Assembly (NCBI GenBank): GCA_023150935.1
Contig: JAKLJW010000008.1
Coordinates: forward strand, 1,721-65,720
Source: Candidatus Binatia bacterium
Lineage (GTDB): Bacteria > Desulfobacterota > Binatia > HRBIN30
Direction of reading: 5' to 3'
DNA: 64,000 nt
The notes beneath the pieces were generated by a model. That model ran no database searches, was not told the origin of the DNA, and was given only the letters and a program-made list of their open reading frames with translations. How positions within the stretch are numbered: position 1 is the first letter of the stretch; every line of letters starts with the position of its first letter. The position numbers and the translations under genes are program-made. Shown here one piece after another: positions 42,767-62,253 of this stretch.

Positions 42767-42872
42767 ATTCGCCTCCGGCGGCTGGCAAACGAGGTAGAGG
42801 TTGCCGGTGCCGCGGCACCGGATGCCGGCCGCTGCCGATACGATCATCCCCGCAAAGGAGACACCGAACACC

Positions 42873-44522
42873 ATGGCCTTTACGCTTGCCGACATCAACG
42901 AAGCACTGGCCGGAGCCTTTCCGGAACGCGAATGTCTCGTCTTCGGTAAGCGCCGCGACTCGTGGCGGGAACTGAACTTGCGCACGCGGCGGCTCGCCAA
43001 CTTCCTCGTCAGTCAGGGGCTCGGCTGCCATCGCGAACGCGACCAATTGCAGAACTACGAGTCCGGCCAGGACCACCTCGGCATCTACCTGTACAACGGC
43101 AACGAGTATCTCGAATCCATGATCGGCGCGTTCAAGGCTCGCGTCGCCCCCTTCAACGTCAACTACCGCTACGTCGCCGACGAACTGATCTATTTGCTCA
43201 ACGACGCCGACTGCCGAGCGCTGGTCTACCACGCACGGTTCGCGCCGGTTCTGGAACAAATCCGGGCCGAGTTGCCGCATCTCCGATCGCTCATCCAGGT
43301 GGAAGACGAGTCGGGCAATCCTCTCCTCCCGGGCGCGGTCGATTACGAGGCCGCCCTGCGGCAGTCATCGGACGCGCGGCCGGCCCTGCTATGGTCCCCC
43401 GACGATCTCTACATCCTGTACACCGGCGGGACGACGGGCATGCCCAAGGGCGTGCTGTGGCGGCAGGAGGACATCTTCTTCGGCGCACTCGGCGGGCATC
43501 CACCGGGGGCTCCAAAGCACGAAACGATGGACACCGTGCTGGCCGCCGCGGGCAGCGGTTCGCTGCGCGCGCTCCCGGCCCCCCCGTTCATGCACGGCGC
43601 CTCGCACTGGATGGCCTTCAATTGCCTGCATCAGGGCGGGACCGTGATCATCCAGGACAAGCCGGGCCACCTTGACGCCCACGACATATGGGCGACCATC
43701 GAACGCGAGAAGGTGACGTTTCTGACCATCGTCGGGGACGCCTTCGGTCGCCCTCTCATCGATCAACTGGCCAAGCACGACTACGACCTGTCGTCGCTGG
43801 CGGTAATCCTGTCCGGCGGCGCGATTCTCACCCCCGCCCTCAAACAGGCGTTCCTCGAACGCATCCCGCAGATAATGATCATCGACGGCTTCGGCGCCTC
43901 CGAGACCGGCGGACACGGCACCCAGATCACCATGGCCGGAATGAAGCCGACTACCGGGTCGTTCCAGATGAACGAACAAACCACCGTACTCACGCACGAC
44001 CTGAGCGGGCGCCTGACCTCGGGCAGCGAAGAGTCGGGGTGGCTCGCGCGAAGCGGCCACGTCCCCCTCGGATATTTCAAGGACGCCGAGAAGACCGCCA
44101 GGACGTTCCCGGTGATCGGCGCCACGCGATACGCCGTTCCCGGCGACCACGCCACCATCGCCGCCGACGGCACCATCGTCGTGCTGGGGCGCGGTTCGGT
44201 GAGCATCAATTCCGGCGGCGAGAAGATCTATCCCGAGGAGGTCGAAAAGGCCCTCAAGCATCACCCGTCGGTGTACGACGCCGTGGTCGTCGGCACCCCT
44301 AACGAGCGCTTCGGCCAACAGGTAACCGCCGTCGTTCAGGCCCGTGCCGGGGAAGAACCTACCGAGCAAGAGTTGGTGGACTTCTGCGGCCGACACCTGG
44401 CGCGCTACAAGCTGCCGCGGGCGGTGGTCTTCGTCGACGAAATGGTGCGGAGTCCGTCGGGGAAAGCCGACTACCGCTGGGCGAAGGCGACGGCCCTGAA
44501 GCACCTCGGCATCGAAACCTGA
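42873..44522 (+). CDS. Acyl-CoA synthetase / AMP-dependent ligase (FadD-like)
   Basis: ATG at 42873 with an upstream AAGGAG. ILYTGGTTGMPKGVLW (AMP-binding core), DGFGASETG, ATIAADGTIVVLGRGSVSINSGGEKIYPEEVE and PSGKADY. Confidence 0.88.
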   Translation: MAFTLADINEALAGAFPERECLVFGKRRDSWRELNLRTRRLANFLVSQGLGCHRERDQLQNYESGQDHLGIYLYNGNEYLESMIGAFKARVAPFNVNYRYVADELIYLLNDADCRALVYHARFAPVLEQIRAELPHLRSLIQVEDESGNPLLPGAVDYEAALRQSSDARPALLWSPDDLYILYTGGTTGMPKGVLWRQEDIFFGALGGHPPGAPKHETMDTVLAAAGSGSLRALPAPPFMHGASHWMAFNCLHQGGTVIIQDKPGHLDAHDIWATIEREKVTFLTIVGDAFGRPLIDQLAKHDYDLSSLAVILSGGAILTPALKQAFLERIPQIMIIDGFGASETGGHGTQITMAGMKPTTGSFQMNEQTTVLTHDLSGRLTSGSEESGWLARSGHVPLGYFKDAEKTARTFPVIGATRYAVPGDHATIAADGTIVVLGRGSVSINSGGEKIYPEEVEKALKHHPSVYDAVVVGTPNERFGQQVTAVVQARAGEEPTEQELVDFCGRHLARYKLPRAVVFVDEMVRSPSGKADYRWAKATALKHLGIET

Positions 44523-48980: not shown

Positions 48981-50666
48981 TCAACGCGGCATGCGTACGG
49001 CCACTTCGCCCTCGACGTGTAACGTGCCCACGTCGACCGCGAGCCGTCCCGGTTCGTCGCGCAACGCCCACAGGTCGGCCGCCGTCGCGGTCAACCAGAA
49101 ACGCAACCGCCCCCCGCCCAGTGTCGTCCAGCGCAGGCGCACCCGGCGGCCGTCGTCGTCCTCGTAGATCGCCCGCCGCGAACCGTCGACAACCGGCGTT
49201 GCGGTGACGTGCACGACACACCCGCCCACACCCCGCAGGTCGAGGGTCAACGAGTCCCGCCGTGGATCGAGATCGGTCCCCACCGGTAATGAGATCTCGC
49301 CAACCACCGTCAGCCGGCCGATACCGGAGACGTCCGGACGCCCGACGGCGCGCGCGTCGGCCAGCCGTACCGCGACCGGCACCACCTCGAAGGCCCCCCG
49401 GTCCACGCCCCCGCCCAGCGGCCGCGCCACGCCACGCACATCGGCGGGCGGCGATCCCCTGGAGTCGGCACTGTCGATCGCCGCGCTGCCGGCGCCCGGC
49501 ACACCCGTCGTCGCCTCCAGCAACGGATCGATGGCGAAGGTGCCATCCCCCTGACCGGTCTCCTGCTGCCACCGGCCGTCGTTCACGTCGTTCCCCGAAT
49601 ACAACGCCGACCCGCCAACGCGGGTGAGCTCGATGAGTCGCTCCCTGGCCAGGGGCCTGTGGAAGATGTTGTGACTCTCGATCAGACGCACGCTGGCGTC
49701 GGCGACCAACGCCTTTGCGGGTCCGGTGACCACCGAGTTGCGCACCGTCAGCGTGTACGCCCCGCCGGTGGCGCGAATGCCGGTGTCGTTGTCGACCAGC
49801 GTACCGTTCAGAATGGTCGCCGCGGCGCCGGCACCGCCGATATTGATTCCCGTGCGCTGCCTTTCGACCACCAGGTTCTCGACCACGCCTCCGGCGGCGA
49901 GCTTCACTCCCGAGCACCCGTTGTCGCGTGCCCGGCTCGCGAGCAGCGTCACCGACGCGGTCTGCAGGTCGAAGCCGTCTTCGGAATTCCCGACTGCCTC
50001 GCAGCGTTCGAACAGGACGTCGGCCGTCGACTCGTCGGCACTGAAGCCGTCGGCATCTCCGGAGCAGCCGCCGCCGTCGTCGTTGCCGGCAGAGCGCGTG
50101 TCGGCCACGCGCACCCGCTGCGCTCCGGCGAAGATGCGCACGCCCGTGCGCGCCAGGCGCTCGATCACGCAGTCGCGCACCGTAACGTCGGTGGCGCCGG
50201 CAACCCAGATGCCGGCGTGATTGTCGTACAGGTGGAGCCCGGCCAGTTCGATCTCGCGGGCCCCGGGGCGCACGAACACCGTCTCGGCGAAGCCGGCGCG
50301 CAGCGTAAATCCCTCGATGCGCACGTGGGCCGCACCGGGAAGGACATCGAACGCCGACAGACTCGCCCCCGGGTTCGGACTTTCCAGCACGGCGCCGGGA
50401 AGGCCTCGGATGACGATCGGCACCCCCGGCGCGCCCGCCACGGCAACCGCGACCGCTTCGCGATAGACGCCGGGCAGCACAACGACATCGTCGCCCGGCA
50501 GGGCCGCGCGCACGCCCGCAGCTACGGTGCGAAACGGCGCGCGCTCACTGCCGACGTTGCCGTCGTCGCCCGTCGTCGCCACCACTCGCAGGACCGCTTG
50601 TGCCGCGGGCGGAAAGCTGGCGCCGAGCCAGACCACCGCGAGGACCATGAGCACGCGCGCCGTCAT
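48981..50666 (-). CDS. Secreted right-handed parallel beta-helix repeat protein
   Basis: ATG at 50666. Signal peptide MTARVLMVLAVVWLGASFPPAAQA. PFRTVAAGVRAALPGDDVVVLPGVYRE (DUF1565-like start) is followed by repeated ..N.I....G(I/V)....-type beta-helix turns. Confidence 0.7.
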   Translation of the reverse strand: MTARVLMVLAVVWLGASFPPAAQAVLRVVATTGDDGNVGSERAPFRTVAAGVRAALPGDDVVVLPGVYREAVAVAVAGAPGVPIVIRGLPGAVLESPNPGASLSAFDVLPGAAHVRIEGFTLRAGFAETVFVRPGAREIELAGLHLYDNHAGIWVAGATDVTVRDCVIERLARTGVRIFAGAQRVRVADTRSAGNDDGGGCSGDADGFSADESTADVLFERCEAVGNSEDGFDLQTASVTLLASRARDNGCSGVKLAAGGVVENLVVERQRTGINIGGAGAAATILNGTLVDNDTGIRATGGAYTLTVRNSVVTGPAKALVADASVRLIESHNIFHRPLARERLIELTRVGGSALYSGNDVNDGRWQQETGQGDGTFAIDPLLEATTGVPGAGSAAIDSADSRGSPPADVRGVARPLGGGVDRGAFEVVPVAVRLADARAVGRPDVSGIGRLTVVGEISLPVGTDLDPRRDSLTLDLRGVGGCVVHVTATPVVDGSRRAIYEDDDGRRVRLRWTTLGGGRLRFWLTATAADLWALRDEPGRLAVDVGTLHVEGEVAVRMPR

Positions 50667-50933
50667 CAGCGCGGGCAAGGAGCAACCGACATGCCTGTGC
50701 CGGGGACCAAGCCGACGGCTCCTCGTCCGCTTCCCGGCCCCCGCCCGCCGCACCGTCCCCGCCGATTCCGCCGCAACCGTCAAATTCGCGGCTAACTCCC
50801 GCGATTTGCGCTATGCACCCTGCCGCGGCGCCGGCTGCGACACCGCGCATGGCGAACGCGCGGCGCGAGAAAATCCTTGGGTCTCGCCGGCGGTGTTGGT
50901 AGGGTGCCGGCATCCCTACCGGAGGTACTCTCG

Positions 50934-52496
50934 ATGCGTCGTCCGGCACTCGCCCTCGTCCTGGTTGCTCTCGGCATTGCCTTGCCCGTACTCCCCGCCG
51001 GGGCCGCCGAAACCTGCGAACGGGCGGGCGCGTCGTTTCTGGTGTCGATCATCGGCGCCGCCCGGACCTGCCTGACCAAGGACGTGCCGGCGGGGCGTTC
51101 CTGCACAAGGCGCAACCGCGGCATGGAGCGGCGCGCCGAACTGGTAACGTCCCTGTGCGCTTCCGGCACGGTCGAACGGCTGACCTGCACCGCCCGCCAG
51201 GCGATTCTCGCCGCGGGCCTGCCCTATGCCGCAATGACCGGGACGGGCTTCGGCTACCTGTGCACGACGACGTCGTGCGGCAACGGCGTCACCGAACCGC
51301 CCGAGCAGTGTGACGACGCCAATGTGATCGGCGGCGACGGCTGCTCCGCAATCTGCCAACTCGAGGGCGGGGCCTGTACGGACGTCTGCGCCGGCATCGT
51401 ACCGGTAACCGGCACGTCCATCCGTGCGGAACGGGTTGCCACCGGACTGTCCCAACCGGTGTTCGTGGTCGCGCCGCCGCGCGACACGACGCGAGTGTTC
51501 ATCGTCGAGAAGACCGGCCGAATACGCATCCTCAAGTTCGGTACGTTGCTCCCGACCGCGTTTCTCGATCTCGCCGCCCTGATTTCCGGAGGCGGCGAGC
51601 AAGGCCTACTGGGACTGGCTTTCCACCCGAGCTACGCCGACAACGGACGCTTCTTCGTCAATTACACGGACACCGATGGCGACACCGTCGTGGCCGAGTA
51701 CCGCGTCTCGGCCAACCCCGACATTGCCGACGCCGGCAGTCAGGAAATCCTGCTGCAGATCGATCAGCCCTTCGACAACCACAACGGCGGTCAGGTGTCG
51801 TTCGGTCCGGACGGGTTTCTGTACATCGGCACCGGCGACGGCGGCAGCGGCGGCGATCCAATGGACAACGCCGAGAACATCGACTCGCATCTCGGGAAGC
51901 TGCTGCGCATCGACGTCGACAACGGCACCACCTACGTCAGCCCACCGACCAACCCCTTCTTCGGCGCCGTGCCCGGACTGGACGAGATCTGGGCGTACGG
52001 GCTGCGCAACCCATGGCGGTTCAGCTTCGATCGCCTCAACGGCGACCTGTATATCGGCGACGTCGGTCAGGGGAGCTGGGAAGAGATCGACTGGCGCCCG
52101 GGGAGCAGCACGGGCGGCGAAAACTACGGATGGGACGTGATGGAAGGTTTGCACTGCTTCGAGCCGCCGAGCGCGTGCACGCAGACCGGTCTGACCATGC
52201 CCGTTCTCGAGTACGATCACGGGCAAGGATGTTCGGTGACCGGTGGCTACGTCTACCGCGGATGTAAGATGCCCGACCTCGCCGGAACCTACTTCTACGC
52301 CGACTACTGCACCGAGTTTGTGCGCACGTTGACCATGTCCGGCGGCGTCGCCACCAACTTGCAGGACCGAACGGCGGAGCTGGAGTCCGGGGGCGTGAGC
52401 ATCGACGCCATCACCTCATTCGGCGAGGACGCGCGCGGCGAGATCTACATCACCGACCAGGGCGGCGAGGTGTTCAAGATCGTTCCGGGACCGTGA
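50934..52496 (+). CDS. PQQ-dependent sugar dehydrogenase (sorbosone/soluble glucose dehydrogenase family) with an N-terminal Cys-rich repeat
   Basis: ATG at 50934. Signal peptide MRRPALALVLVALGIALPVLPAGA. CGNGVTEPPEQCDDANVIGGDGCSAICQLE (myxococcal-type Cys-rich repeat). GLLGLAFHPSYADNGRFFVNYTD, NHNGGQVSFGPDGFLYIGTGDGG, GLRNPWRFSFD. Confidence 0.85.
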   Translation: MRRPALALVLVALGIALPVLPAGAAETCERAGASFLVSIIGAARTCLTKDVPAGRSCTRRNRGMERRAELVTSLCASGTVERLTCTARQAILAAGLPYAAMTGTGFGYLCTTTSCGNGVTEPPEQCDDANVIGGDGCSAICQLEGGACTDVCAGIVPVTGTSIRAERVATGLSQPVFVVAPPRDTTRVFIVEKTGRIRILKFGTLLPTAFLDLAALISGGGEQGLLGLAFHPSYADNGRFFVNYTDTDGDTVVAEYRVSANPDIADAGSQEILLQIDQPFDNHNGGQVSFGPDGFLYIGTGDGGSGGDPMDNAENIDSHLGKLLRIDVDNGTTYVSPPTNPFFGAVPGLDEIWAYGLRNPWRFSFDRLNGDLYIGDVGQGSWEEIDWRPGSSTGGENYGWDVMEGLHCFEPPSACTQTGLTMPVLEYDHGQGCSVTGGYVYRGCKMPDLAGTYFYADYCTEFVRTLTMSGGVATNLQDRTAELESGGVSIDAITSFGEDARGEIYITDQGGEVFKIVPGP

Positions 52497-52514
52497 CCGG
52501 GCGGCCGGCGGTTC

Positions 52515-53894
52515 TCACGCTTCCTCGCGCTTGCCGCGTTGGCGCTCTTTCCGGAGCAGCAGCTCGGCGCTCACGTCTTTACGGATCGCGCCCTGGCGCC
52601 GGAAGAGCACGCCGCTCATGCACTGCAGCGATACCGTGTCGTCGGCGCTGAGGGTGGTGCAGTTGGTGTTGAGCACCACGGGAAGCAAGGCGGCCGGGTA
52701 GCGGTCGATCTTGATGGCAAAGAAGGTGGCGGCCGCCAGCTTCAGCAGCGGGGGCAGCAGCCCGATCGAGCGCGGCCGCAGCGATACCGCGCAGGCGGCC
52801 ATGAAAGTGAACGCGCGAACCGCAAACGGCGAGCGCGCGAAGCGCTCCCAGACGCGCAACGCCGCGCCGAAGCGCCGCATGTTCAGGTAGTGGGTAATCG
52901 GCGCCAGGCTGCCGCGGCGGCGCACGAAGATCATGATCTGCGTGTACAGGCAAAGTCGCACGCCCATAAGGTTGAGCGCTGCCAGCATCATCTTTTGCAG
53001 CTCGAACCAGTCCCCGCGGTCGCCCGACCCGTAGCGCCGGTGCAGTACGTCCATCATCTCGTCGGGCATGATCATCATCGACGAGTCCATCCCCCGCCCC
53101 TCGCCGACCCACGCGAAGCCGTTGACCGATAGCTCCCTTACGAACGGCTTGTCCCGGGCGAACTCGATCGCCTCGACCAGCAGGTCCTCGTTGACGCCGC
53201 GAAAAATCGTCGGCGAAAGGACGGTGGCGATTCCCAGTTCGCCGAGATTCTGCAAGGCTTTCAACTTCAACGAATAGAACGCGTCGTCGTATGCGCCCAG
53301 CGTCGAGTCGGAGCCAAGCGACTCGATCGACACCCGGACCTCGTTCAACTTCGCCGCCGCCATGCGATCGCAATAGTCGCGGCGGGCGAACTGTATGCCG
53401 TTGGTTGCCAACTGCGTTGTCAGACCGAGCGCGTGGGCCTCGCGGAAGAAGTCCTCGGCGTTGGGATGCAGGGTGGCCTCCCCGCCCGACAGGGTCAGCT
53501 TGTCCTTCCCGAAGCGCCGCAGAATGCCGCGCAAATCGTCGAGCGACATGGTCTCGAACCATGGCGACTCGACTTCGGTCTGACAGAACGCGCAGTTCAT
53601 CTGGCAGCGCGGCGTCGACAACACCCAGTAGTTCGTGATCCGCCCGCTCGGCGCCCGGCCGTTGCCGAGCACCTCGAAGAAGAAGCGCTCCAGATCGCGG
53701 TACAGGGGGCCGTTGGCCGAAAGCAGGAAATCCCGCGGACCGTGTTCCGGACAGGTCCGGCACAGCAACGCCTTGCCGTCCACTTCCCGTATCGTTCCGT
53801 CGAGCGGGCGAACGCAGACCGGACAGACCGTCCGCGTCTGCCGCGGGGCGGCGCCGGCGCCGGCCGGTGCGTTGGAAACGAAGCTCGATGCCAC
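52515..53894 (-). CDS. Radical SAM enzyme with N-terminal zinc-ribbon (HMPTM/Tes-like architecture)
   Basis: CQMNCAFC is a CxxxCxxC radical-SAM cluster motif. It is preceded by CPVCVRPLDGTIREVDGKALLCRTCPEHG (CxxC...CxxH ribbon). ...LTLSGGEATLHP... No SPASM Cys cluster. GTG at 53894 is the only start that does not collide with the divergent gene at 54015, so the start is uncertain. Confidence 0.75.
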   Translation of the reverse strand: MASSFVSNAPAGAGAAPRQTRTVCPVCVRPLDGTIREVDGKALLCRTCPEHGPRDFLLSANGPLYRDLERFFFEVLGNGRAPSGRITNYWVLSTPRCQMNCAFCQTEVESPWFETMSLDDLRGILRRFGKDKLTLSGGEATLHPNAEDFFREAHALGLTTQLATNGIQFARRDYCDRMAAAKLNEVRVSIESLGSDSTLGAYDDAFYSLKLKALQNLGELGIATVLSPTIFRGVNEDLLVEAIEFARDKPFVRELSVNGFAWVGEGRGMDSSMMIMPDEMMDVLHRRYGSGDRGDWFELQKMMLAALNLMGVRLCLYTQIMIFVRRRGSLAPITHYLNMRRFGAALRVWERFARSPFAVRAFTFMAACAVSLRPRSIGLLPPLLKLAAATFFAIKIDRYPAALLPVVLNTNCTTLSADDTVSLQCMSGVLFRRQGAIRKDVSAELLLRKERQRGKREEA

Positions 53895-54014
53895 GATGAG
53901 GCGATGCTGGCACTTTCTCGGGCGGGGAACAAACTCTTCCGGCGAGGTGTCGATTCGGAGTACGCTGGGGATCGTGGATCTCTGGCAACCTCGCCGCTGG
54001 TGGCGCGTGCGACC

Positions 54015-55046
54015 ATGAACATATCTGTCGCCCTTGTCGACGGGACGGCCTTGGACGAGGTCCTGAACCGGCTCTTGCCCGCGGAAACGGAGCTGCCTTA
54101 CGCCAACTTCGCTCCGATCGCGGCGCGCCCGGGCGCCATCGTCGAACTGCATCGCGGGCGTTGGCTTGCCGCCGGCGAGCGCATCGAGGTGCTGGCCGCC
54201 TATGCAGGCGACCGCCCTCTCGGGGCGGTGCGCATCGAACATCGGCCCTTCGAGTCGGATCACTTCGGCTTACGCATGGCGCGCATCGACCAACCCATCG
54301 CCGTCAATGACTGCGTTGCACGCCGGACCGTGCTGCGCGAGCTGTACGCCGCGGCATTCGACAGCTTGCGTGGGCGCGGGTACCGGCACGTCAGCTCCAG
54401 AGCCTCGGCGAACGACAGCGCCGCGTCATGGGTCCTGCAGGAGCTGGGGGCGTTTCACGTCGACACGCAGGTGTCGTGGATGAGTTCTCTCGACGGTCCC
54501 GCGCCGGCGGACAATCTGGCTCCGGGCCTGACGGTCGAAATCCTGGACAAGCCCGCCCTGCGACGGCTCGACCGGGAATCCTGGCGTCAGGTGGTGGAGT
54601 GGACCGCGCAGGCCTTCGAGCGCGGCCCGTTGGTGTTCGACCACACGCTGCCGCGCGACCGCGCCGCCGGCGTGTACGGGGTCTGGGCCGAGCGCGCCAT
54701 GTGCGGCGATTGGGCCGACGCGGTTTGTGTGGTGCGCGACGGGAGCAAGATCGTGGCGTTCGGCTCCATGCTGCTTTTGGCAGACGTTTCCGCGCACGGA
54801 GGGGTTCGCGTGTGCGGTCGCGGTCTCGCCGCGACGCTGCCGAAGTATCGCGGCCTGTTCACCGCCATTCATCGCGAACTCATCGTGCGCAAGCCGCTCG
54901 GCGCCCAGTTCGCCGAGACCGACACCCAGGTGACCAATCTGGGTAGCGTCAACGTCTGCGTCAAACTCGGGTTCCGGTGCTTACGAGTCACCTCGACGTT
55001 CAGTCGCCGGCTCGACCAGGCCGCCGCCGGCACGGAGACTGGTTAA
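54015..55046 (+). CDS. Two-domain GNAT-like acetyltransferase (WecD-like)
   Basis: ATG at 54015 inside track ORF 53433..55046. RIEHRPFESDHFGLRMARID resembles the WecD N-domain start. The C-terminal VAFGSML...GRGLAATLPKYRGLF...VKLGF resembles a GNAT motif A/B region. The assignment is moderate. Confidence 0.5.
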   Translation: MNISVALVDGTALDEVLNRLLPAETELPYANFAPIAARPGAIVELHRGRWLAAGERIEVLAAYAGDRPLGAVRIEHRPFESDHFGLRMARIDQPIAVNDCVARRTVLRELYAAAFDSLRGRGYRHVSSRASANDSAASWVLQELGAFHVDTQVSWMSSLDGPAPADNLAPGLTVEILDKPALRRLDRESWRQVVEWTAQAFERGPLVFDHTLPRDRAAGVYGVWAERAMCGDWADAVCVVRDGSKIVAFGSMLLLADVSAHGGVRVCGRGLAATLPKYRGLFTAIHRELIVRKPLGAQFAETDTQVTNLGSVNVCVKLGFRCLRVTSTFSRRLDQAAAGTETG

Positions 55047-56011
55047 GAGTCTCGGGGTGACTCGCCGGCCCGGGCCCGGGTGCTGCCGTTTCGCGGTCCC
55101 TGCCGCACGACGTACGCGGGTTCGGCGCCGGCGACGAGGCGATACACGCGACCCAGGTACAGGCCCAGCATGCCGCCCGCGAAGAACACGGCACCGGTCA
55201 GCACCAGCGTGAGGGCGGCGGCGGGGATGACCCAGCCCGCGCCATCCAGGATGGCCCACAGGATCAGCATCGCCACGCCGGCCACAGTGCAGAGGGCCCC
55301 CGCCGCGCCCATGAGAGCGAGGGGCAGGGTGGTGAACGCGGTGATGAGGTCGAAGTTGATGCGCAGCAGCTTGAGCAGCGAGTACTTCGACGTGCCGAAG
55401 CGGCGGGGTTCGTGCCGGACAGTCACCTCGGTTACCGAGTGCCCCAGCCAGAGCGCCAGCGGGAAAAAGGGCTTACCGGGCGCCCAGGCGCGCCGCGTCG
55501 TCTCCAGCGCATCGCGACGGTAGGCTTTGAAGTTACCGCCGTAGTCCTCGATCTCGACTCCCGTCAGTCGGCACGCGAGCCAATGGATCGCCCGCGAACC
55601 GAGCCAGCGGAGGAGGCCCTCGTACCGACTGCCGCGCCGCGCGGTGGCAACGGCCGCGCCCGCCTCGATGGCGTCGAGCAGGCGCGGGATCTCTTCGGGT
55701 GGATTCTGCAGATCGCCGTCGAGGGTCACTGTCACCGCCCCGATCGCGGCAAAGAGCCCGCAGGCTAGAGCGGCGGCCTGCCCGAAGTTGCGGGTGAGCT
55801 CGAAGACGCGCACCCGCGCGTCTTGCGCCTCGATGGCGCGCAACAGCGCGACCGTTCCGTCACGGCTGCCGTCGTCGACGAAGATCAGCTCGAAAGTCTC
55901 GCCGCGCGCCGCTAACGCCGCGCTCGTGCGGTCAGCCAACTCCTTGACCGTATGGACGTCGTCGTAAACCGCGACGACGACCGAGATGGCAGGGGTTGTC
56001 TCAAGAGTCAT
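55043..56011 (-). CDS. GT2 polyprenyl-phosphate glycosyltransferase (ArnC/DPM1-like)
   Basis: ATG at 56011. ISVVVAVYDDVHTVKEL...FELIFVDDGSRDGT...TRNFGQAAALACG...TLDGDLQNPPEEIPRLL, plus two C-terminal TM helices. Confidence 0.85.
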   Translation of the reverse strand: MTLETTPAISVVVAVYDDVHTVKELADRTSAALAARGETFELIFVDDGSRDGTVALLRAIEAQDARVRVFELTRNFGQAAALACGLFAAIGAVTVTLDGDLQNPPEEIPRLLDAIEAGAAVATARRGSRYEGLLRWLGSRAIHWLACRLTGVEIEDYGGNFKAYRRDALETTRRAWAPGKPFFPLALWLGHSVTEVTVRHEPRRFGTSKYSLLKLLRINFDLITAFTTLPLALMGAAGALCTVAGVAMLILWAILDGAGWVIPAAALTLVLTGAVFFAGGMLGLYLGRVYRLVAGAEPAYVVRQGPRNGSTRARAGESPRDS

Positions 56012-58523
56012 CGCGTGCCGATTCCGCTGCGGCCAGATAGCGCGCGGCGGTTTCACCCAGTACCTCGGCGAGCGCCGCATCTCCCCGCGCAAGTGCGGCT
56101 GCCTTGCCGCGCTGCGCAGCCTCGGCCGCGGCGCTCCAGCGACGGTCCGCCGCGTACGCCGCCGCCAGAGTGGCGAGTGTGCCCGGATCCGCGAACCGGG
56201 TGGTCTGGCAGGCCCGCTCCGCCCAGTGCACCGCCTCCTCGGTCAGTCCCGGCGCCCGGCCGTCGAGCAGGGCTCGCGCCGTTGCCTCGAAGAGCGCCGT
56301 TTGCGCGAAGTTCCGCCGCACCGCCGTGCGCAACTCCTTCCGGGCTGCGTCGGGCTCCCCGCGCGTTTCGAGCTCTCGCGCCTCGGCCAGCACTGCCCCC
56401 GCCCAGGTCGCTTCCGTCTCGAGCCGCGCGCGGCATCCCACCTCGACCCATTCCCGATCGGGCAGCGCCGGAACCCACCCGGGACCGGTGGGACGCGCCA
56501 CGAACGCGCGTGAGAACCCCGCCCGGTCCGTGAGCACGTACACTGCGGCCGCCGGCCACTCGCGACATATCGCTTGCCGGACGAGCGCGTCTTCTTCGAG
56601 GGCCGGGTTCCAGACAATCAGTTCGGCCTCGCCCCCATTCGCTCCCGCCTGCCGCGGCGGACTTCCGTCGAACGGCCGCACCGACACCGGGTGCCGCACG
56701 AGGTCCGCGGCAAACTCGTTCAGGTACCAGTACGGAAAGCCGCGCGGATTCGGATGGTCGAGGAAGAGCACGCCACCCGGTACGGCGGCCGCCCCCAATG
56801 CCCGTAGAGAAACACTCACCCACGACGCCGGTAAGGTGTGGGGGACGACGCGGTCGAAAACGAAGCTCCCGCCAGCCGCGACTCCCAGGGCGGCGAGGGC
56901 GGCGGCGACCGTCGCGGTCCACCCCTGAAGACGGAGCCAGCGTTGCAACGTCGTCCATCCGACCCCCGCCAGCAACGCCATCGGCACGGTCATCGCCACC
57001 AGTCGTATCACGGAGATCCGATCCTGACTCGACAGAACCGCGGGCCCGGCGCCCAGAACCAACGTGCCCAGGAGCAGGCGTGCCGGCCACCCGCGGGTGA
57101 GAGCGCCGAGGGCCATGACGGCACCGACCACGGCGAGGGCCGTGCCGACGGGATCGAAAAGCGCGTCGCCGATCTTCCGCAGCGGGGTGCGAGCCACCGC
57201 TACGGGGGACAGCGCGGCGGCAAGTACGATGTCCCACGGTCGGGGGCTGGCGGCTTCCACCACGTACTCGGACCGTCGCGGCGAGATCTGGCCGAAGGCC
57301 GCCGTTTCGTGCCCGGCCCACTGGGCCCGGCCTTGCGAGTACGTGGCAGCTACCGACCGCAGGTTGCCGAAGTCGGTGCGGCCCGTGACTGCGCCGGCAA
57401 AGAACAGGAGTATCGCGGTGAGCACGACCTGGAGCCGCTGCGGGCGCGGCCACGCACGGCAACACATCAGCCCGGCAACCATCACTGCGAGCGCAACCAG
57501 GTTTGCCGTGTGCAGGGTCACCCCGATGCCGGCGAGCCCGCCAAGGCCGACCAAAGCCGCTGCGGACTGCCGCAGGCGGACCGCCGCGAAGAGGCCGATC
57601 AGCCCGGCGACGACCAGCGGGAAGAAGAAGAAGGGCAGCGGCGTCAGGACCAGAGCCAGCACGTAAGGCGAGAACAACAATGCCGCGGCCGCGACGGCGG
57701 CGGCGCCGAGGCCGAAAAGACGGCCCGCGATCCATCCGACGAGCAACCCGCACACCGGGAACCAGATCAGGTGGGCCGCCTGAGCGACGCGGCCGGCGAG
57801 ATCGATCCCCACCGTGCGTAACAGCGGCGCCCCTTGCAAGATGAAGTGATACGCCCCGGCGCCCGTCATTACTCGATCGGTGAGGAGGTTGTAATCGGGC
57901 TGCGTTACCTGAGAGAGGAACCGGATCCCCACCCAGGTGTCGGCGAGGTCGGCGGCGTCCGGCGACCGCCACATCGACGGCCCGCGCACGGCGAGCCAAC
58001 CGACAGCCACCAACGCGGCGACGGCCACACTGCCGGCCGTCCGCAGGCGGCGCGGCCGCGGCCGGGTGACCAGCACGAGGGGTGGCACCGCAAGACCCGC
58101 CACGTAAAGGAGCTGTCCCGCACGGCCGAACCTGTCCGCCCACAGACCCGCGACTGCCAGCAGGCCGGCGACCGCGAGGGCCACCCGTACGCGCCAGGTC
58201 GCCGCACGATCGGCGGGCGTCACCATCCGCAGACGCTCGTCGCACAGTGGGTTTGCCGATGGCGGAACCAGCCCGAGCAGCAGCAAGCCGGCGGCCGCGA
58301 GGCAGCCGAGCCGCCCGACGACCCACCACCCGGGCACGCCCGGGAAGAGCCGGTCCAGCAGCGTCGCACCCGGGGCGATGGGAACGATCGGTTGGCCCGG
58401 CGGCGGGACGAACAACGGCAGGCAGTACGCCGCAAGCAGCGCCAGTACCAGCCAGGGGCCGGCCCGGACCGCAAGGCGTTGCGGCGGCGGGTTTCCCGTC
58501 GGCGTGTGCATCGATCGGTGCAT
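56001..58523 (-). CDS. Polytopic membrane protein (GT-C/ArnT-PMT-like) with a C-terminal soluble TPR-like domain
   Basis: ATG at 58523 shares one nt with the aminotransferase stop (TGATG). About 12 hydrophobic spans over about 600 aa, followed by a helical Ala/Arg/Glu-rich tail (..EARELETRGEPDAARKELRTAVRRNF...LATLAAAYAADRRWSAAAEAAQ..). The track ORF N-terminus (to 59282) overlaps the upstream gene and was rejected. Confidence 0.5.
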   Translation of the reverse strand: MHRSMHTPTGNPPPQRLAVRAGPWLVLALLAAYCLPLFVPPPGQPIVPIAPGATLLDRLFPGVPGWWVVGRLGCLAAAGLLLLGLVPPSANPLCDERLRMVTPADRAATWRVRVALAVAGLLAVAGLWADRFGRAGQLLYVAGLAVPPLVLVTRPRPRRLRTAGSVAVAALVAVGWLAVRGPSMWRSPDAADLADTWVGIRFLSQVTQPDYNLLTDRVMTGAGAYHFILQGAPLLRTVGIDLAGRVAQAAHLIWFPVCGLLVGWIAGRLFGLGAAAVAAAALLFSPYVLALVLTPLPFFFFPLVVAGLIGLFAAVRLRQSAAALVGLGGLAGIGVTLHTANLVALAVMVAGLMCCRAWPRPQRLQVVLTAILLFFAGAVTGRTDFGNLRSVAATYSQGRAQWAGHETAAFGQISPRRSEYVVEAASPRPWDIVLAAALSPVAVARTPLRKIGDALFDPVGTALAVVGAVMALGALTRGWPARLLLGTLVLGAGPAVLSSQDRISVIRLVAMTVPMALLAGVGWTTLQRWLRLQGWTATVAAALAALGVAAGGSFVFDRVVPHTLPASWVSVSLRALGAAAVPGGVLFLDHPNPRGFPYWYLNEFAADLVRHPVSVRPFDGSPPRQAGANGGEAELIVWNPALEEDALVRQAICREWPAAAVYVLTDRAGFSRAFVARPTGPGWVPALPDREWVEVGCRARLETEATWAGAVLAEARELETRGEPDAARKELRTAVRRNFAQTALFEATARALLDGRAPGLTEEAVHWAERACQTTRFADPGTLATLAAAYAADRRWSAAAEAAQRGKAAALARGDAALAEVLGETAARYLAAAESARDDS

Positions 58524-59719
58524 CAGGCGCTGAAGTGTTGGACCAGACGCAGAAGCGCCTCGATGACGTCGTCCTGGTCGGCGTCGGTCATGGCCGGATG
58601 CAGCGGCAACGACAGCAACCGTCGCGACGCATCGGCCGCCACGGGCACTGCCTCCGGCGGCGTACCCAGCACCGCGCGGAAATGCCGGTGCAGGGGCAGA
58701 GCACGGAAGTGCACGCCGACGCCGATATTTTCGGCCAGTAATCCGCGCAGCACTTCGTCCCGATCGATGCGCAGTCGCTCGAGATCGAGCAATACCGGGA
58801 ACAGGTGCGCGGCGGTCTCGGCGCCGCCGGGGCCGACGACCGGTCGAACGGCGGGGACCAGTGCCAGGCGTTCCCGGTATCGCGCATCGAGCGCCCGGCG
58901 GCGCGCCAGCAGTACCGGCAAACGCTCGAGCTGGGCAAGACCGATCGCCGCCTGCAAGTCCGTCAGGTTGTACTTCCAACCGAGCGAGACGGCTTCCCAG
59001 TGGGCGAAGTTCGTCCCCCGGCGTTGGCTCGCATCGAGGTCGATACCGTGCAGGCGTTCCCGCCGCAGCCGCGCGACCAGGGCGGCGCGCTCGGTGGCGA
59101 TCATGCCGCCCTCGCCGGTGGTGATGCTCTTCGTCGGATAGAAGCTGAAGACCGCGGCGTCGCCAAGCGTTCCGACGGCGCGCCCGTCGAGAGTGGCGCC
59201 AAGCGCGTGTGCCGCATCTTCGATCGCGAACGCGCCTTGCGCCCGGGCCAACGCCAGCAACGGAGGCATCGTGCACGGCCACCCGGCATAGTGCACCGCA
59301 ACTACGGCACGCGTGCGCGCTGTCCAGGCCGCCGCGACGGCAACGGGGTCGAGCGTCAGGCGGTCGGGGAGGACATCGGCAAGCACCGGCCGCGCTCCGG
59401 CGTGCAGGATTGCGTTCGCGGTTGCGGCGAAGGTCATCGGTGACGTGATGACATCGTCACCGGGTCCGAGCGCGAAAGCCCGCAGAGTCAAGTGCAACCC
59501 GGCAGTGCACGACGCCACCGCAACGGCGCGCTCGGCCCCGATGGTCGCGGCGAAGCGGTTCTCGAACTCCGCCGTGCGCGGGCCGGTTCCCAGCCAACCC
59601 GAGCGCAGTACGTCGATGACGGCGGCCTCCTCGGCCGCGCCCAGCACCGGGCGCGACAGCGGCAAGAACGTCGTGCGAACGGGCGTTCCGCCGGCGATCG
59701 CCGGTCGCTCCGCGCTCAT
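58523..59719 (-). CDS. DegT/DnrJ/EryC1/StrS-family sugar aminotransferase (ArnB/WecE-like)
   Basis: 398 aa. ...VLRSGWLGTGPRTAEFE..., DDVITSPMTFAATAN, AIEDAAHALGA, and FSFYPTKSITTGEGGMI (PLP-lysine context). Confidence 0.9.
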   Translation of the reverse strand: MSAERPAIAGGTPVRTTFLPLSRPVLGAAEEAAVIDVLRSGWLGTGPRTAEFENRFAATIGAERAVAVASCTAGLHLTLRAFALGPGDDVITSPMTFAATANAILHAGARPVLADVLPDRLTLDPVAVAAAWTARTRAVVAVHYAGWPCTMPPLLALARAQGAFAIEDAAHALGATLDGRAVGTLGDAAVFSFYPTKSITTGEGGMIATERAALVARLRRERLHGIDLDASQRRGTNFAHWEAVSLGWKYNLTDLQAAIGLAQLERLPVLLARRRALDARYRERLALVPAVRPVVGPGGAETAAHLFPVLLDLERLRIDRDEVLRGLLAENIGVGVHFRALPLHRHFRAVLGTPPEAVPVAADASRRLLSLPLHPAMTDADQDDVIEALLRLVQHFSA

Positions 59720-60034
59720 CTCGTTTCCGGTATCCGGCCGGTGCGGCGACTGCGGTCAACCACCGATGTCACACCGGCCCTGCGAATTGCGCTGTGTATG
59801 CAAACCGCTCGCGTTGCCCTCAAGAAGGCCGAACCAGGCGCCGGACAGCCGCCCGAGTCGCCGGACGTTGCACCTTCTCGATTCATTGCGCCGACGTCGC
59901 AAGTTCATTGCACCGGGACGCGGAGCATACCGAATGCGTGTCGCCGAGGGCAAGGAACCGGGGGCCGTAAGCCCGGCGGTATGCGCAGGGGCTAGTGGAA
60001 AACACCGGCCGCTGCATGCTAGCCATCGTACCCG

Positions 60035-60571
60035 ATGCGCGCGTGGGTTCGCAAAATTCTTCGCCGGCAGGTACCCGCAGAGAGCATCCCGGAGGTGCGG
60101 CAGGAGATAGCCACGACGCTCGAGGCCGCGCAGCGGTCGGCCCGCGCGGTTGCCCGGCTGGGGCTACGTTTGGACCAGGTGGAGTCGAAGCTCGAGGGCG
60201 GCTTCGCCGATCTGCGGGCCCAGCTAAGTACGTTTCGCAGCAATGGCGTGCCGGCGTCTCGCCCGCCCTTCGAGCTGCTCTTCGACGCTGCCGACCTCCT
60301 CGACGAAGCCGCACGGCTGAGTGCTTCGCCCGGTCACGCGGCGGGGCTCGCCGGCATTCGCGAGCGACTGGAGCGGTTTCTTTTCGAAGCCGGCCTGCAA
60401 CGAGTGGCGCAAGTGGACGGTCCGGTGGATCCGCTGCGCTTTCGCGTCGTGGGCCGCGAGGACGGCGGCGCGAGGCCGCGCGTGATACGTGCGGCAATCC
60501 TCGACGGCGAGCGGCTGGTTCGCGAGGGCGAGATCGTTCTGGAACGCGAGAGGGAGGAAGCCACAACATGA
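60035..60571 (+). CDS. GrpE-like protein (divergent nucleotide-exchange-factor homologue)
   Basis: 178 aa. The N-half is predicted to be long helices. The C-terminus GLQRVAQVDGPVDPLRFRVVGRE....RPRVIRAAILDGERLVREGEIVL parallels the GrpE beta-domain (G...i...G..FDP..H.Av........V......GY...gr.lR.A.V.V). Translationally coupled (ATGA) to the Hsp70 gene. Confidence 0.5.
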   Translation: MRAWVRKILRRQVPAESIPEVRQEIATTLEAAQRSARAVARLGLRLDQVESKLEGGFADLRAQLSTFRSNGVPASRPPFELLFDAADLLDEAARLSASPGHAAGLAGIRERLERFLFEAGLQRVAQVDGPVDPLRFRVVGREDGGARPRVIRAAILDGERLVREGEIVLEREREEATT

Positions 60572-62253
60572 GTGCCTTCGGTATAGATCTCGGAACGACC
60601 AATTCCTCCATCTCGCGCATCGTCGACGGCCGCCCGGTAGCGTTGTCCGTGGACGGCTATCCGCTGCTGCCTTCGGTGGTGCTGTACCGCGACGGCGGCG
60701 TGACGGTCGGGCGCGAGGCTCGCAATCTCGAGCTGCAATGGCCCGAACACACCCTGCGCTCTGTCAAGCGCAAGATGGGGACCGGACACCGCTGGACGGT
60801 GGCCGGACGCGAGGTCGGTCCCGAGGAAGCTTCCGCCGAGATCCTCGCGGCACTGAAGCGCGGCGCCGAGGCGGCCACCGGGGAAACCGTTCGCGATGTT
60901 GTCATTACCGTGCCCGCCTACTTCGATGACGCCCAGCGGCGTGCGACCCTCAAGGCGGGCGAGCTGGCGGGTTTGAACGTCCTGCGCCTCTTGAACGAGC
61001 CGACCGGCGCATCGCTGGTCTACGATCAGGTTCGGCAGACCACGGCCCAGCCGGAGATCGTCATGGTCTACGATCTCGGCGGCGGCACCTTCGATGTGTC
61101 GGTGCTGGAGGTCTTCGAGGGGGTGCGCGAGGTCCGCGCCACGGCCGGCAACACTCACCTGGGCGGTGACGACTTCGACACGGCACTGGTCCGTTTTTTT
61201 GCCGATCGTCTCAAAGCCGAGGCGCACGTAGATCCACTCGGCGACGCGCATGCTCGCGTACGGCTTGCGCGCGTGGCCGAGGCCACGAAGATCCGCCTGT
61301 CGGCCGAAACGGAGGTCGACGTTGCCGAGGAGTTCCTGCTTGCCGACGACAAGGGCAAGCCGGTCCACCTGCGCCTGCAGGTCACGCGCCGTCAGCTCGA
61401 AGAAGCCATCGCGCCGCTGTTGGGGTCCACGATCGATCTGTGCCGGCAGGCGCTTGCCGAGGCGCGGCTCACGGGCGGACAGCAGCTCGCGCGGATTCTG
61501 CTGGTGGGCGGTTCCACACGTCTTCCCATGGTGCGCCGGTTGCTCCGCGAGGCCTTTCCCGATGCGCCCGTACACGAGGAGGTCGATCCCGACCTCGCCG
61601 TAGCGCTTGGCGCGTCGGTCCAGGCCGGGTTGCTGCGCGGAATCGCCCTCGAGCGGATACTCGTCGATGTCACGGCGCATTCGCTCGGCATGTGCGTTCT
61701 GAGCGAAGCCGACGATTTCAGGGAGAAGCCCGACACGTACGCCCCCATCCTGCACCGCAACACCGTGCTTCCCGCAGTGCGCGCCGAGGAGTTCTACACC
61801 CTTTTCGACGATCAGCCCGGGGTGACGGTCGACGTTTACCAGGGCGAGGCGCCCCGGGCCTCGCAGAACAACCACATCGGGTCGTTCCGCTTCCCGCTGC
61901 AGCCGGCGCCCGCGGGCTGCCCGGTGCGGGTAGAGTTCGCATACGATCTCAATGGAGTCGTGCGCGTGAGCATTGCCCAGTCCGGTACGGACAACGCCAA
62001 GACTGTGGCTTTGTCCGTTGCCGACACCGGCGTTCCCGTCAGCTCGGTCGACGCGCTCGAACGCCGGGTGGGCGCCCTGCTCGATCGCATTGCGGGCGAG
62101 GACAAGCCGGCGCTCGAAGCGGCGCTGGCAGCATGGCGCGTGGCACAGGGCGAGAGGCGTCAGGCTGCCGAGGACGCGTTGATCGATCTCTTGCTGTTCC
62201 TCGAAGACGAGGCCGAGGCCGACGGTATCGATGAGGAGGGCGATGGCGTCTGA
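60568..62253 (+). CDS. Hsp70-family ATPase paralogue (non-canonical DnaK)
   Basis: ATG at 60568 inside track ORF 59995..62253. GIDLGTTNS, VITVPAYFDDAQRRATLKAGELAGLNVLRLLNEPT, VYDLGGGTFDVSV, LLVGGSTRLPMV. 561 aa, with a short acidic tail and no EEVD or long lid. Confidence 0.88.
   Translation: MSAFGIDLGTTNSSISRIVDGRPVALSVDGYPLLPSVVLYRDGGVTVGREARNLELQWPEHTLRSVKRKMGTGHRWTVAGREVGPEEASAEILAALKRGAEAATGETVRDVVITVPAYFDDAQRRATLKAGELAGLNVLRLLNEPTGASLVYDQVRQTTAQPEIVMVYDLGGGTFDVSVLEVFEGVREVRATAGNTHLGGDDFDTALVRFFADRLKAEAHVDPLGDAHARVRLARVAEATKIRLSAETEVDVAEEFLLADDKGKPVHLRLQVTRRQLEEAIAPLLGSTIDLCRQALAEARLTGGQQLARILLVGGSTRLPMVRRLLREAFPDAPVHEEVDPDLAVALGASVQAGLLRGIALERILVDVTAHSLGMCVLSEADDFREKPDTYAPILHRNTVLPAVRAEEFYTLFDDQPGVTVDVYQGEAPRASQNNHIGSFRFPLQPAPAGCPVRVEFAYDLNGVVRVSIAQSGTDNAKTVALSVADTGVPVSSVDALERRVGALLDRIAGEDKPALEAALAAWRVAQGERRQAAEDALIDLLLFLEDEAEADGIDEEGDGV

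Follow-up and report, generated by a model that had tools for sequence, protein, structure and literature searches.

A bacterial relative of tetraether synthase encoded beside an Arn-like lipid-carrier glycosylation module in Candidatus Binatia

The archaeal tetraether synthase Tes (GDGT-MAS) is the sole member of its architecture with a known reaction, and the coupling of inert sp3 carbons that it catalyzes was unprecedented at the time of its discovery. Its radical S-adenosylmethionine (SAM) core, a partial TIM barrel with the CX3CX2C motif, is accompanied by a rubredoxin-like iron site, C9x2C12x20C33x2H36 (PMC9433317), by an N-terminal auxiliary [4Fe-4S] cluster with the motif CPYDCGLCPNH (C73, C77, C80 and a histidine), and by a C-terminal cluster, for which three cysteines, not named individually, and Met439 are given as ligands (PMC9433317). 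Tes holds lipids in hydrophobic pockets, and the C-terminal cluster retains the substrate radical (PMC9433317; PMC13459092). Tyr459 is strictly conserved and adjoins the substrate, and is reported to be non-essential for activity on the basis of Y459F/L data (PMC9433317). Here we describe a bacterial protein of related architecture, encoded on the minus strand at positions 52515-53894 of a 64,000-nucleotide stretch (the window) of contig JAKLJW010000008.1 from a Candidatus Binatia bacterium. Its sequence places the protein in a bacterial family, so far undescribed, that is sister to the Tes (GDGT-MAS)/TrsS clade. Considering the gene linkage and the fold, we see about an even chance that this radical SAM enzyme has a lipid-linked sugar or a glycolipid as its substrate.

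TrsS (NF045646), a bacterial radical SAM (seleno)protein, has the ribbon plus radical SAM architecture in common with the window protein. Mss of Thermotoga, a bacterial radical SAM enzyme that couples lipid tails, is described as only remotely related to Tes (PMC13159169), and is set apart here on the basis of that description. Mss proteins are defined by PSI-BLAST matches with E <= 1e-50 and an identity of 30% or more to the Thermotoga or Thermoanaerobacter enzyme. An earlier note on the window, made from the letters alone, had treated the hydroxymethylpterin methyltransferase (HMPTM) and Tes as two families with a common layout. Both names belong to MJ0619 (PDB 7TOL/7TOM), which has been shown to be a tetraether synthase, and of the former only the Pfam domain name survives (PMC9433317). 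Of the memberships considered in that note, Tes cannot be upheld, since the window protein stays below the Tes cut-offs (see below), and Mss and HMPTM are unlikely.

The gene and its product have the following features (window coordinates).

52515..53894, minus strand: coding sequence of the Tes-like radical SAM protein, 459 residues, from a GTG start at 53894 to the stop codon at 52515-52517
53727..53843, minus strand: rubredoxin-like ribbon, residues 18-56, C24-x2-C27-x20-C48-x2-H51 (Pfam PF23545)
53157..53618, minus strand: radical SAM core, residues 93-246 (Pfam PF04055, E 3.6e-20)
53583-53606, minus strand: C97-x3-C101-x2-C104 of the radical SAM core, all three cysteines invariant
52518..53066, minus strand: C-terminal domain, residues 277-459, a small beta-sheet and a hydrophobic helical cap; candidate auxiliary [4Fe-4S] site / lipid-binding region
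52950-52952 (C315), 52659-52661 (C412) and 52620-52622 (C425), minus strand: conserved C-terminal cysteines, with D418 also conserved

The succession of ribbon and radical SAM motif that the earlier note had read from the letters is borne out far beyond chance. The translation of 52515-53894 (minus strand) contains CPVCVRPLDGTIREVDGKALLCRTCPEHG and CQMNCAFC, and Pfam recognizes both the core and, at residues 18-56, the Zn_ribbon_HMPTM domain (PF23545; 43 bits against a cut-off of 27, E 3e-11). Conservation was assessed in an alignment of 28 close homologues (39-72% identity) and then in one of 80 distant representatives (18-43% identity). The ribbon cysteines C24, C27 and C48, on whose conservation the note's proposal depended, are invariant in both, as are C97, C101 and C104. 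The fourth ribbon ligand is H51 and not C45, the residue assumed before, which is not conserved in either the 28 close or the 80 distant homologues. For H51, C315, C412, D418 and C425, conservation among the distant relatives is 90% or more, and C315, C412 and C425 are invariant within the close subfamily. The signature residues are also retained in most or all of ten paralogues from other clusters, with H51 replaced in two of them.

Because C315, C412 and C425 are conserved, the C-terminus cannot be regarded as cysteine-free. The claim that it has no SPASM-type cysteine cluster holds: Pfam gives no match in the window protein to the SPASM domain (PF13186), and the CX2CX5CX3C-type motif of SPASM or twitch domains is absent. 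The claim overlooked these three, however, among the only C-terminal cysteines, C315, C368, C412 and C425. The three are likely ligands of an auxiliary Fe-S site. The last 170 or so residues had also been called fairly hydrophobic. This is true of helices at about residues 293-309 and 357-391, but there is only a single borderline transmembrane-like segment (376-394, Kyte-Doolittle 1.67), and the 17-residue hydropathy averaged over the family has a maximum of 1.2-1.4. We reject a genuine membrane-spanning anchor, as the family mean lies under typical transmembrane values; the moderate hydrophobicity of the sequences speaks for amphipathic or hydrophobic helices instead.

The structural comparison points to Tes as well. 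An AlphaFold2 model of the window protein (pLDDT 91.2, pTM 0.91) matches 7tom/7tol in a Foldseek search with a template-modelling (TM) score of 0.70 over 468 columns, compared to 0.37 for MoaA, so that the structure prediction agrees with the Tes-like layout suggested earlier. A profile of the family, searched against PDB sequences, finds GDGT-MAS (7tol) with E 6e-41 over ribbon and core, with MoaA next (1e-19). A hhalign comparison with a Tes/TrsS alignment is full-length (probability 100, E 1.8e-70, 412 columns). The profile of the C-terminal domain alone gave only spurious pentatricopeptide-repeat matches among PDB sequences, and homology to the Tes C-terminus is visible only by profile-profile and fold comparison. 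Identity to Tes is 19-24%. The spacing of the ribbon ligands is identical in the two proteins, and the radical SAM motif and the PF04055 core are present in both. For the residue-by-residue comparison, the MJ0619 sequence and its numbering were taken from HMMER alignments, the 7tol chain being MJ0619 with a 20-residue tag. The hhalign map pairs residues of the window protein with those of MJ0619 as follows.

C315: C338
N409: Met439 (ligand of the labile Tes cluster)
C412: Met442
D418: D448
C425: C455
V429: Tyr459
S442: C470

C338, C455 and C470 do not vary in the Tes/TrsS alignment, and Met439 hardly does; from this we infer that the three cysteines are the ligands of the Tes C-terminal cluster. 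Two of the positions (C338 and C455) would then be common to Tes and the window family, while the third cysteine is relocated within the same strand-loop region to C412, a new conserved residue of the window family three residues past the Met439 position. The window protein does not retain Met439, Tyr459 or Cys470 of Tes. The difference at the N-terminus is larger, since the auxiliary cluster motif of Tes is absent from the window family altogether: the 7tol segment 'GCPYDCGLCPNH' aligns to a gap in the family profile, and the stretch from the ribbon to CX3CX2C is free of cysteine in the window protein as well as in seven of the eight scorable paralogues. TrsS-clade proteins, unlike the window family, retain both the Tes-type N-terminal motif and a C-terminal CC...C pattern.

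The part of the Tes-like assignment that stands is therefore the fold and the ribbon; orthology does not. In published work, a protein counts as a Tes homologue if BLASTP against a confirmed Tes gives an E-value below 1e-50 and an identity above 20-30% (PMC8941075). The papers that applied this rule used MA_1486 or Maeo_0574 as reference; with MJ0619 residues 3-475, as used here, the window protein gives 23.8% identity over 369 residues and 110 bits, at E 1.8e-30 pairwise or 7e-22 for an nr-like database size, and thus falls short. It scores 85.5 bits against the NCBIfam Tes model NF045702 (cut-off 450), and its best NCBIfam match is TrsS with 91 bits (cut-off 490). None of the 80 distant relatives reaches the Tes or the TrsS cut-off, the best of them matching the TrsS model with E 4e-64, still under the threshold. 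The hidden Markov model (HMM) search proposed in the earlier note thus places the protein below both cut-offs.

The same data bear on the idea that the window protein is a true bacterial synthase of tetraethers or other membrane-spanning lipids, which would, like Tes, join two lipid chains tail to tail by C(sp3)-C(sp3) coupling of their ends, to products resembling glycerol dialkyl glycerol tetraethers of the branched type (brGDGTs) or diabolic acid. The whole-length Tes fold with its hydrophobic cap and the largely retained C-terminal cysteine site fit this explanation; acyl-CoA ligases and B12 radical SAM proteins, possibly chain methylases, recur near homologues, and it has been proposed that Tes homologues of bacteria synthesize brGDGTs (PMC8941075). 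However, every tested criterion of Tes membership failed, the N-terminal cluster is missing, and Met439, Tyr459 and Cys470 are not kept. Moreover, the conserved partner is a polyprenyl-phosphate glycosyltransferase and no glycerolipid or ether-lipid gene, and the close subfamily was found in only a few lineages of metagenome-assembled genomes (MAGs). We consider tail coupling unlikely, and the family as a whole is probably not one of tetraether synthases. This matters for surveys that equate 'Tes homologues' in bacterial metagenomes with brGDGT producers, which the family would enter through relaxed thresholds or through the Pfam domain pair alone.

The family can be defined by a length of about 430-470 residues, the ribbon C-x2-C-x20-C-x2-H, the CX3CX2C motif with no cysteine cluster between the two, and the C-terminal pattern C...C-x5-D-x6-C. 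The window protein has every one of these elements, which are at least 90% conserved in the 80 representatives and present also in the paralogues checked. When 1.84 billion representatives were searched exhaustively with a profile, 427 clusters were obtained at E<=1e-30. Around ten of them make up the close subfamily, and full-length relatives that score 160-300 bits form a broad set below it. Among species-representative genomes, only MAGs were found to contain the close subfamily, and those of few lineages, with the labels Myxococcota or Deltaproteobacteria, Hydrogenedentota, Auribacterota, Omnitrophota, Planctomycetales and Flavobacteriales; the homologues nearest to the window protein (73-74% identity) are labelled Myxococcota/Deltaproteobacteria. 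A literature search found nothing specific on the family, on PF23545 or on the function of TrsS.

Two rough neighbour-joining trees were built, the first (40 bootstraps) with invalid distances for saturated pairs, the second (100 bootstraps) with capped distances. Every bootstrap (40/40 and 100/100) recovers the close subfamily as a clade, and the proteins nearest to it belong to the broad family. TrsS groups with Tes and apart from the window family, in a split that has moderate support (24/40 and 81/100). In the phylogeny suggested in the earlier note, Tes and TrsS thus stand apart from the window protein. Three relatives, P0087 (950 residues), P0095 (642 residues) and P0099 (771 residues), have the Tes-like module only in their C-terminal 420-440 residues and carry N-terminal extensions of 170-510 residues; these may be fusions that might hint at partners.

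Database names of the homologues are generic or at most of the MoaA type. A few are called 'cyclic pyranopterin monophosphate synthase', 'MoaA' or 'dihydro-6-hydroxymethylpterin dimethyltransferase', and MoaA is the second-best structural match of the window protein. A MoaA-type or pterin-related function is nevertheless hardly credible. The window protein scores 49.6 bits against TIGR02666 (cut-off 284), over the core only, and no molybdopterin genes lie near its gene in the window. The role once assigned to MJ0619, that of a class D radical SAM methylase acting on C7 and C9 of a pterin in methanopterin biosynthesis, is itself uncorroborated, and the structure of the protein argues against it (PMC9433317). 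By HMM cut-offs and literature, the pterin annotation is effectively refuted.

What sets the family apart from Tes in its surroundings is a link to lipid-carrier glycosylation: Tes is archaeal and tied to archaeal lipid genes, whereas the family is bacterial and tied to polyprenyl-phosphate glycosyltransferases. In the window, the partner is a family 2 glycosyltransferase (GT2) of the ArnC/PgfS type. Among 25 non-redundant loci of the close subfamily, searched by directed BLAST with the window proteins, a homologue of this GT2 lies within 8.5 kb, mostly within less than 3 kb, of the radical SAM gene in 18. These 18 loci carry at least five phylum-level labels and show at least eight distinct arrangements, and in 8/8 tested cases the neighbouring GT2 has ArnC or PgfS as its best match. 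By a rough estimate from typical gene counts, an ArnC-type GT2 would be found within a 17-kb span by chance in a few percent of cases. The GT2 linkage is also seen for distant family members, often with arrays of paralogues. The earlier note had proposed a lipid or a lipid-linked glycan as the substrate, and this stays the best reading, because the glycosyltransferase linkage recurs across phyla and the ribbon ligands are conserved. Recurrent neighbours in the loci are the following.

SPASM radical SAM protein: 11 loci
membrane protein with PMT_2 and tetratricopeptide repeat (TPR) domains: 8 loci
NeuD/PglB-type sugar N-acetyltransferase: 8 loci
long-chain acyl-CoA ligase: 7 loci
B12 radical SAM protein: 7 loci
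DegT: 4 loci

The long-chain acyl-CoA ligases recur beside homologues from Hydrogenedentota, and the Myxococcota loci have only the GNAT (GCN5-related N-acetyltransferase) and GT2 genes in common with the window. NCBIfam matches of the neighbouring radical SAM, B12 radical SAM, hexapeptide and other genes are sub-threshold and generic.

In the window itself, the radical SAM gene is the last member of a compact module with the following further parts.

53895..54014: divergent intergenic gap of 120 bp between the radical SAM gene and the GNAT-like gene
54015..55046, plus strand: GNAT-like protein, 343 residues, C-terminal half weakly GNAT-like (codon-position GC; Acetyltransf_1)
55043..56011, minus strand: ArnC/PgfS-type GT2 polyprenyl-phosphate glycosyltransferase with C-terminal transmembrane-like segments (NCBIfam ArnC, Pfam Glycos_transf_2)
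56001..58523, minus strand: multi-pass membrane protein of about 840 residues with a putative GT-C glycosyltransferase fold and a C-terminal TPR-like domain (AlphaFold2 and fold search)
58523..59719, minus strand: DegT/ArnB-like, pyridoxal-phosphate-dependent sugar 4-aminotransferase; the DegT / GT-C / GT2 operon begins with it (Pfam, NCBIfam)

This set resembles the Arn pathway for lipid A aminoarabinose (ArnB, ArnA, ArnC, ArnD, ArnE/F, ArnT) in that its aminotransferase is ArnB-like, its GT2 is ArnC-like, and its GT-C protein has ArnT as the best fold match, with an N-acyltransferase in place of the formyltransferase domain of ArnA. Unlike the Arn pathway, it is without ArnA, ArnD and ArnE/F, its Arn scores lie under the equivalog cut-offs, and it includes a Tes-like radical SAM protein, of which the Arn pathway has none. 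The assignments are as follows. The DegT protein matches Pfam DegT_DnrJ_EryC1 with E 2e-109, and ArnB is its best NCBIfam model (344 bits, cut-off 631). The GT2 reaches 204 bits over the full ArnC profile NF007986 (cut-off 529), and is thus of the ArnC/PgfS type, but not ArnC itself; it is 36% identical to the GT2 adjoining the radical SAM homologue at locus L001. The membrane protein was modelled from position 58466 (821 residues, pLDDT 89). Among PDB folds, ArnT (5f15) comes first, followed by EmbA/B/C, ALG9/12, STT3/PglB and Pmt4, although the predicted GT-C relationship is a remote one, with E-values from 8.5e-5 and modest TM scores. No Pfam or NCBIfam family covers this protein, which has about 20 homologues in all, and pairwise BLASTP of the 821 residues gave nothing with the membrane proteins encoded near radical SAM homologues, be they of the PMT_2, TPR or other types. 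The lipid-carrier glycosyltransferases that the earlier note had seen next to the radical SAM gene are thus confirmed in the case of the ArnC-like GT2 and its linkage across phyla, and have gained a membrane protein with a GT-C-type predicted fold. The divergent acetyltransferase, described before as WecD-like, is a real gene, yet weakly GNAT-like: Acetyltransf_1 matches residues 222-320 with an E-value of 0.017. Its product is 25% identical to the GNAT adjoining the L001 homologue.

If the radical SAM protein does act on a lipid-linked sugar or glycolipid, the following scheme may be envisaged. The order of action in the window would be DegT, GNAT, GT2 and GT-C, and the radical SAM protein, cytoplasmic and peripheral to the membrane, would dock at the cytoplasmic membrane face and act between lipid loading and flipping, the step that ArnD occupies in the classical Arn pathway. 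The partner GT2 would make a polyprenyl-phosphate-(N-acyl)amino-sugar, and this or a glycolipid built from it could be the substrate. Such a substrate would be the most economical choice; this is the only step of the Arn-like scheme that needs a cytoplasmic lipid-binding enzyme. The protein is predicted to bind a rubredoxin-like iron and two [4Fe-4S] clusters, one that cleaves SAM and a second that C315, C412 and C425 would hold. The lipid-linked substrate would enter a Tes-like hydrophobic cavity, where the 5'-deoxyadenosyl radical would take a hydrogen from an unactivated carbon, and the second cluster may hold the substrate radical or donate or accept an electron, as proposed for Tes. Candidate reactions are C-C coupling, a sugar rearrangement or a change to the lipid tail.

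There are precedents for such chemistry. In the hopanoid pathway, HpnJ and the GT2 HpnI form a pair of radical SAM enzyme and glycosyltransferase that acts on a lipid-linked sugar. HpnJ has a B12 domain, unlike the window protein, and B12 radical SAM proteins near homologues of the latter give weak HpnJ matches. Calditol synthase Cds is another radical SAM enzyme that reshapes a lipid-attached sugar (PMC13459092). We found nothing to show that Cds or HpnJ shares the architecture of the window protein.

Several observations weigh against the proposed lipid-linked substrate. Seven of the 25 loci have no nearby GT2, and while several of these end at contig edges, L022 and L024 do not. In the window, the radical SAM gene lies outside the DegT / GT-C / GT2 operon, as a separate unit with an opposite-strand gene between. 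In Tes it is the end of the lipid tail, not the head group, that enters the active site, so that by analogy sugar chemistry would need a re-shaped pocket. The substrate is read from gene linkage and fold only, and the SPASM and B12 radical SAM neighbours are also typical of peptide-modification clusters.

The last point leads to a peptide- or protein-modifying function, be it a maturation in the manner of peptides made by ribosomes and modified post-translationally (RiPPs) or modification of a protein that is also a target of GT-C glycosylation, in which case the lipid-carrier genes would only glycosylate that target. Besides the 11 and 7 loci with SPASM and B12 radical SAM genes, RiPP maturases are among the best NCBIfam matches, PMT_2 and TMTC-like GT-C/TPR proteins are types of protein O-glycosyltransferases, and small open reading frames (ORFs) follow the radical SAM gene in some loci. 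No conserved precursor peptide was seen among the loci, though, and the window module and the Myxococcota loci contain neither a SPASM radical SAM gene, nor a B12 radical SAM gene, nor a small ORF. Pfam finds no RiPP-recognition domain in the window protein, which also has no SPASM domain, and a lipid enzyme is the one protein that comes close to it in structure. Altogether, a peptide substrate seems improbable.

The glycan genes would also be compatible with an enzyme that acts on a soluble nucleotide sugar ahead of the GT2. Its reaction could be a deoxygenation, an epimerisation or a C-methylation, for instance, along the lines of sugar radical SAM enzymes such as DesII, BlsE or those of the AprD4 type. 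Linkage to DegT, to sugar N-acetyltransferases, and to glycan genes of the WbqC and Asn-synthase types is in line with this explanation, and BlsE is among the structural matches for the core. We regard a nucleotide sugar as rather unlikely.

The preferred reading, action on a lipid-linked sugar or glycolipid, can be extended, and here we are distinctly more tentative. The family may be the first radical SAM family to act on polyprenyl-phosphate sugars or glycolipids derived from them, using a Tes-derived lipid-binding scaffold and an auxiliary Fe-S cluster to form or rearrange C-C bonds of a glycan precursor in the membrane. Arrays of three to six diverged paralogues might then, along with B12 radical SAM methylases, build novel and heavily tailored sugars or lipids for the envelope of uncultured phyla, most of them anaerobic. 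What is new in any case is a large bacterial sister family of Tes with a distinct cofactor complement, a steady link to lipid-carrier glycosylation, and multi-paralogue arrays. It points to unexplored radical chemistry at the interface of membrane and glycan, for which the window offers a compact five-gene version (DegT, GT-C, GT2, GNAT-like and radical SAM) that is tractable for heterologous expression.

The arrays are best illustrated by three loci. L025 (4826-10887, Hydrogenedentes MAG, CAITNO010000148.1) has three close-subfamily paralogues in one cluster, 60-66% identical to each other and 41-42% to the window protein, together with PNP_UDP_1, short-chain dehydrogenase/reductase (SDR), B12 radical SAM and ArnC-like GT2 genes. 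L031 (1-17353, found via P0083) has three tandem ribbon radical SAM paralogues, three GT2s, a PMT_2 GT-C protein and DegT, as well as a B12-type radical SAM protein (best match TIGR04295), three further radical SAM proteins, a SufS-like cysteine desulfurase and two PP-loop-like proteins. In L034 (1-17329)/L035, an ENA/Logan metagenome contig found via P0119, a single operon contains six tandem paralogues of 434-450 residues that are 28-38% identical to each other; all keep the cysteine signature and two replace His51. The same operon encodes four B12-binding radical SAM proteins, a short GT2, an Asn synthase and WbqC.

Homologues of the GT-C protein occur in L029 and L030 beside a radical SAM protein of another type (586-610 residues), two to three FA_hydroxylase genes and a Rieske oxygenase; L030 contains DegT in addition, and L029 an SDR and a protein of the sulfatase family. 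These surroundings look like a lipid-modification neighbourhood. The pair of Rieske oxygenase and SDR recalls bacterial sterol C-4 demethylation.

Within the window, the boundaries of the module can be drawn at 52515 and 59719, giving five genes, from the genes that flank it on both sides: an Hsp70 gene past DegT, and genes for a sugar dehydrogenase and a beta-helix protein on the radical SAM side. The stop codon of DegT and the first ATG of the GT-C gene have one base in common (TGATG, 58521-58525), and the stop region of the GT-C gene overlaps the likely GT2 start (ATG 56011; the ORF is open up to 56092) by 11 bases (56001-56011). The overlaps suggest that DegT, GT-C and GT2 are translationally coupled. 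The GT2 and GNAT-like genes are convergent, with a 4-bp overlap at 55043-55046. The secreted glucose/sorbosone dehydrogenase of the pyrroloquinoline quinone type, with a myxobacterial cysteine-rich repeat (50877-52496, plus strand), lies directly downstream of the radical SAM gene, and the right-handed beta-helix protein, with a choice-of-anchor Q domain, is encoded at 48981-50783 (minus strand); neither recurs beside radical SAM homologues. The Hsp70 gene (59995-62253, plus strand) lies opposite an antisense ORF of 785 residues (60334-62691, minus strand), which has a Pfam NAD-GH match and is not a gene. An AMP-binding gene of the acyl-CoA-ligase type (42798-44522, plus strand) is located about 8 kb from the radical SAM gene.

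The reading frame of the radical SAM gene deserves a comment. In the window, which has a GC content of 65-71%, the minus-strand frame is open from stop to stop between 52515 and 54269, but only 52515-53894 is genic. The upstream extension (53895-54269, minus strand) is an antisense open frame opposite the GNAT-like gene and not a gene: codon-position GC supports a real plus-strand gene at 54015-55046 (GC of the third position about 0.8-0.88, of the second about 0.5), so that the extension is the usual antisense frame of high-GC DNA. A scan of 52000-56500 for promoters and terminators found no sigma-70-like promoter in the gap 53895-54014 and no terminator, and an Rfam search of the same region gave no match. 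Within the 120-bp gap before the divergent gene (54015), GTG 53894 is the only in-frame start codon, and no Shine-Dalgarno-like sequence precedes it at normal spacing, as the earlier note had stated; GAGAAAG sits 18-24 nucleotides on its 5' side. The N-terminal length that follows from GTG 53894 agrees with close homologues (459-465 residues), and among the database sequences, which include 67 full-length homologues, P0001 is a protein of 459 residues that is 99% identical to the window protein.

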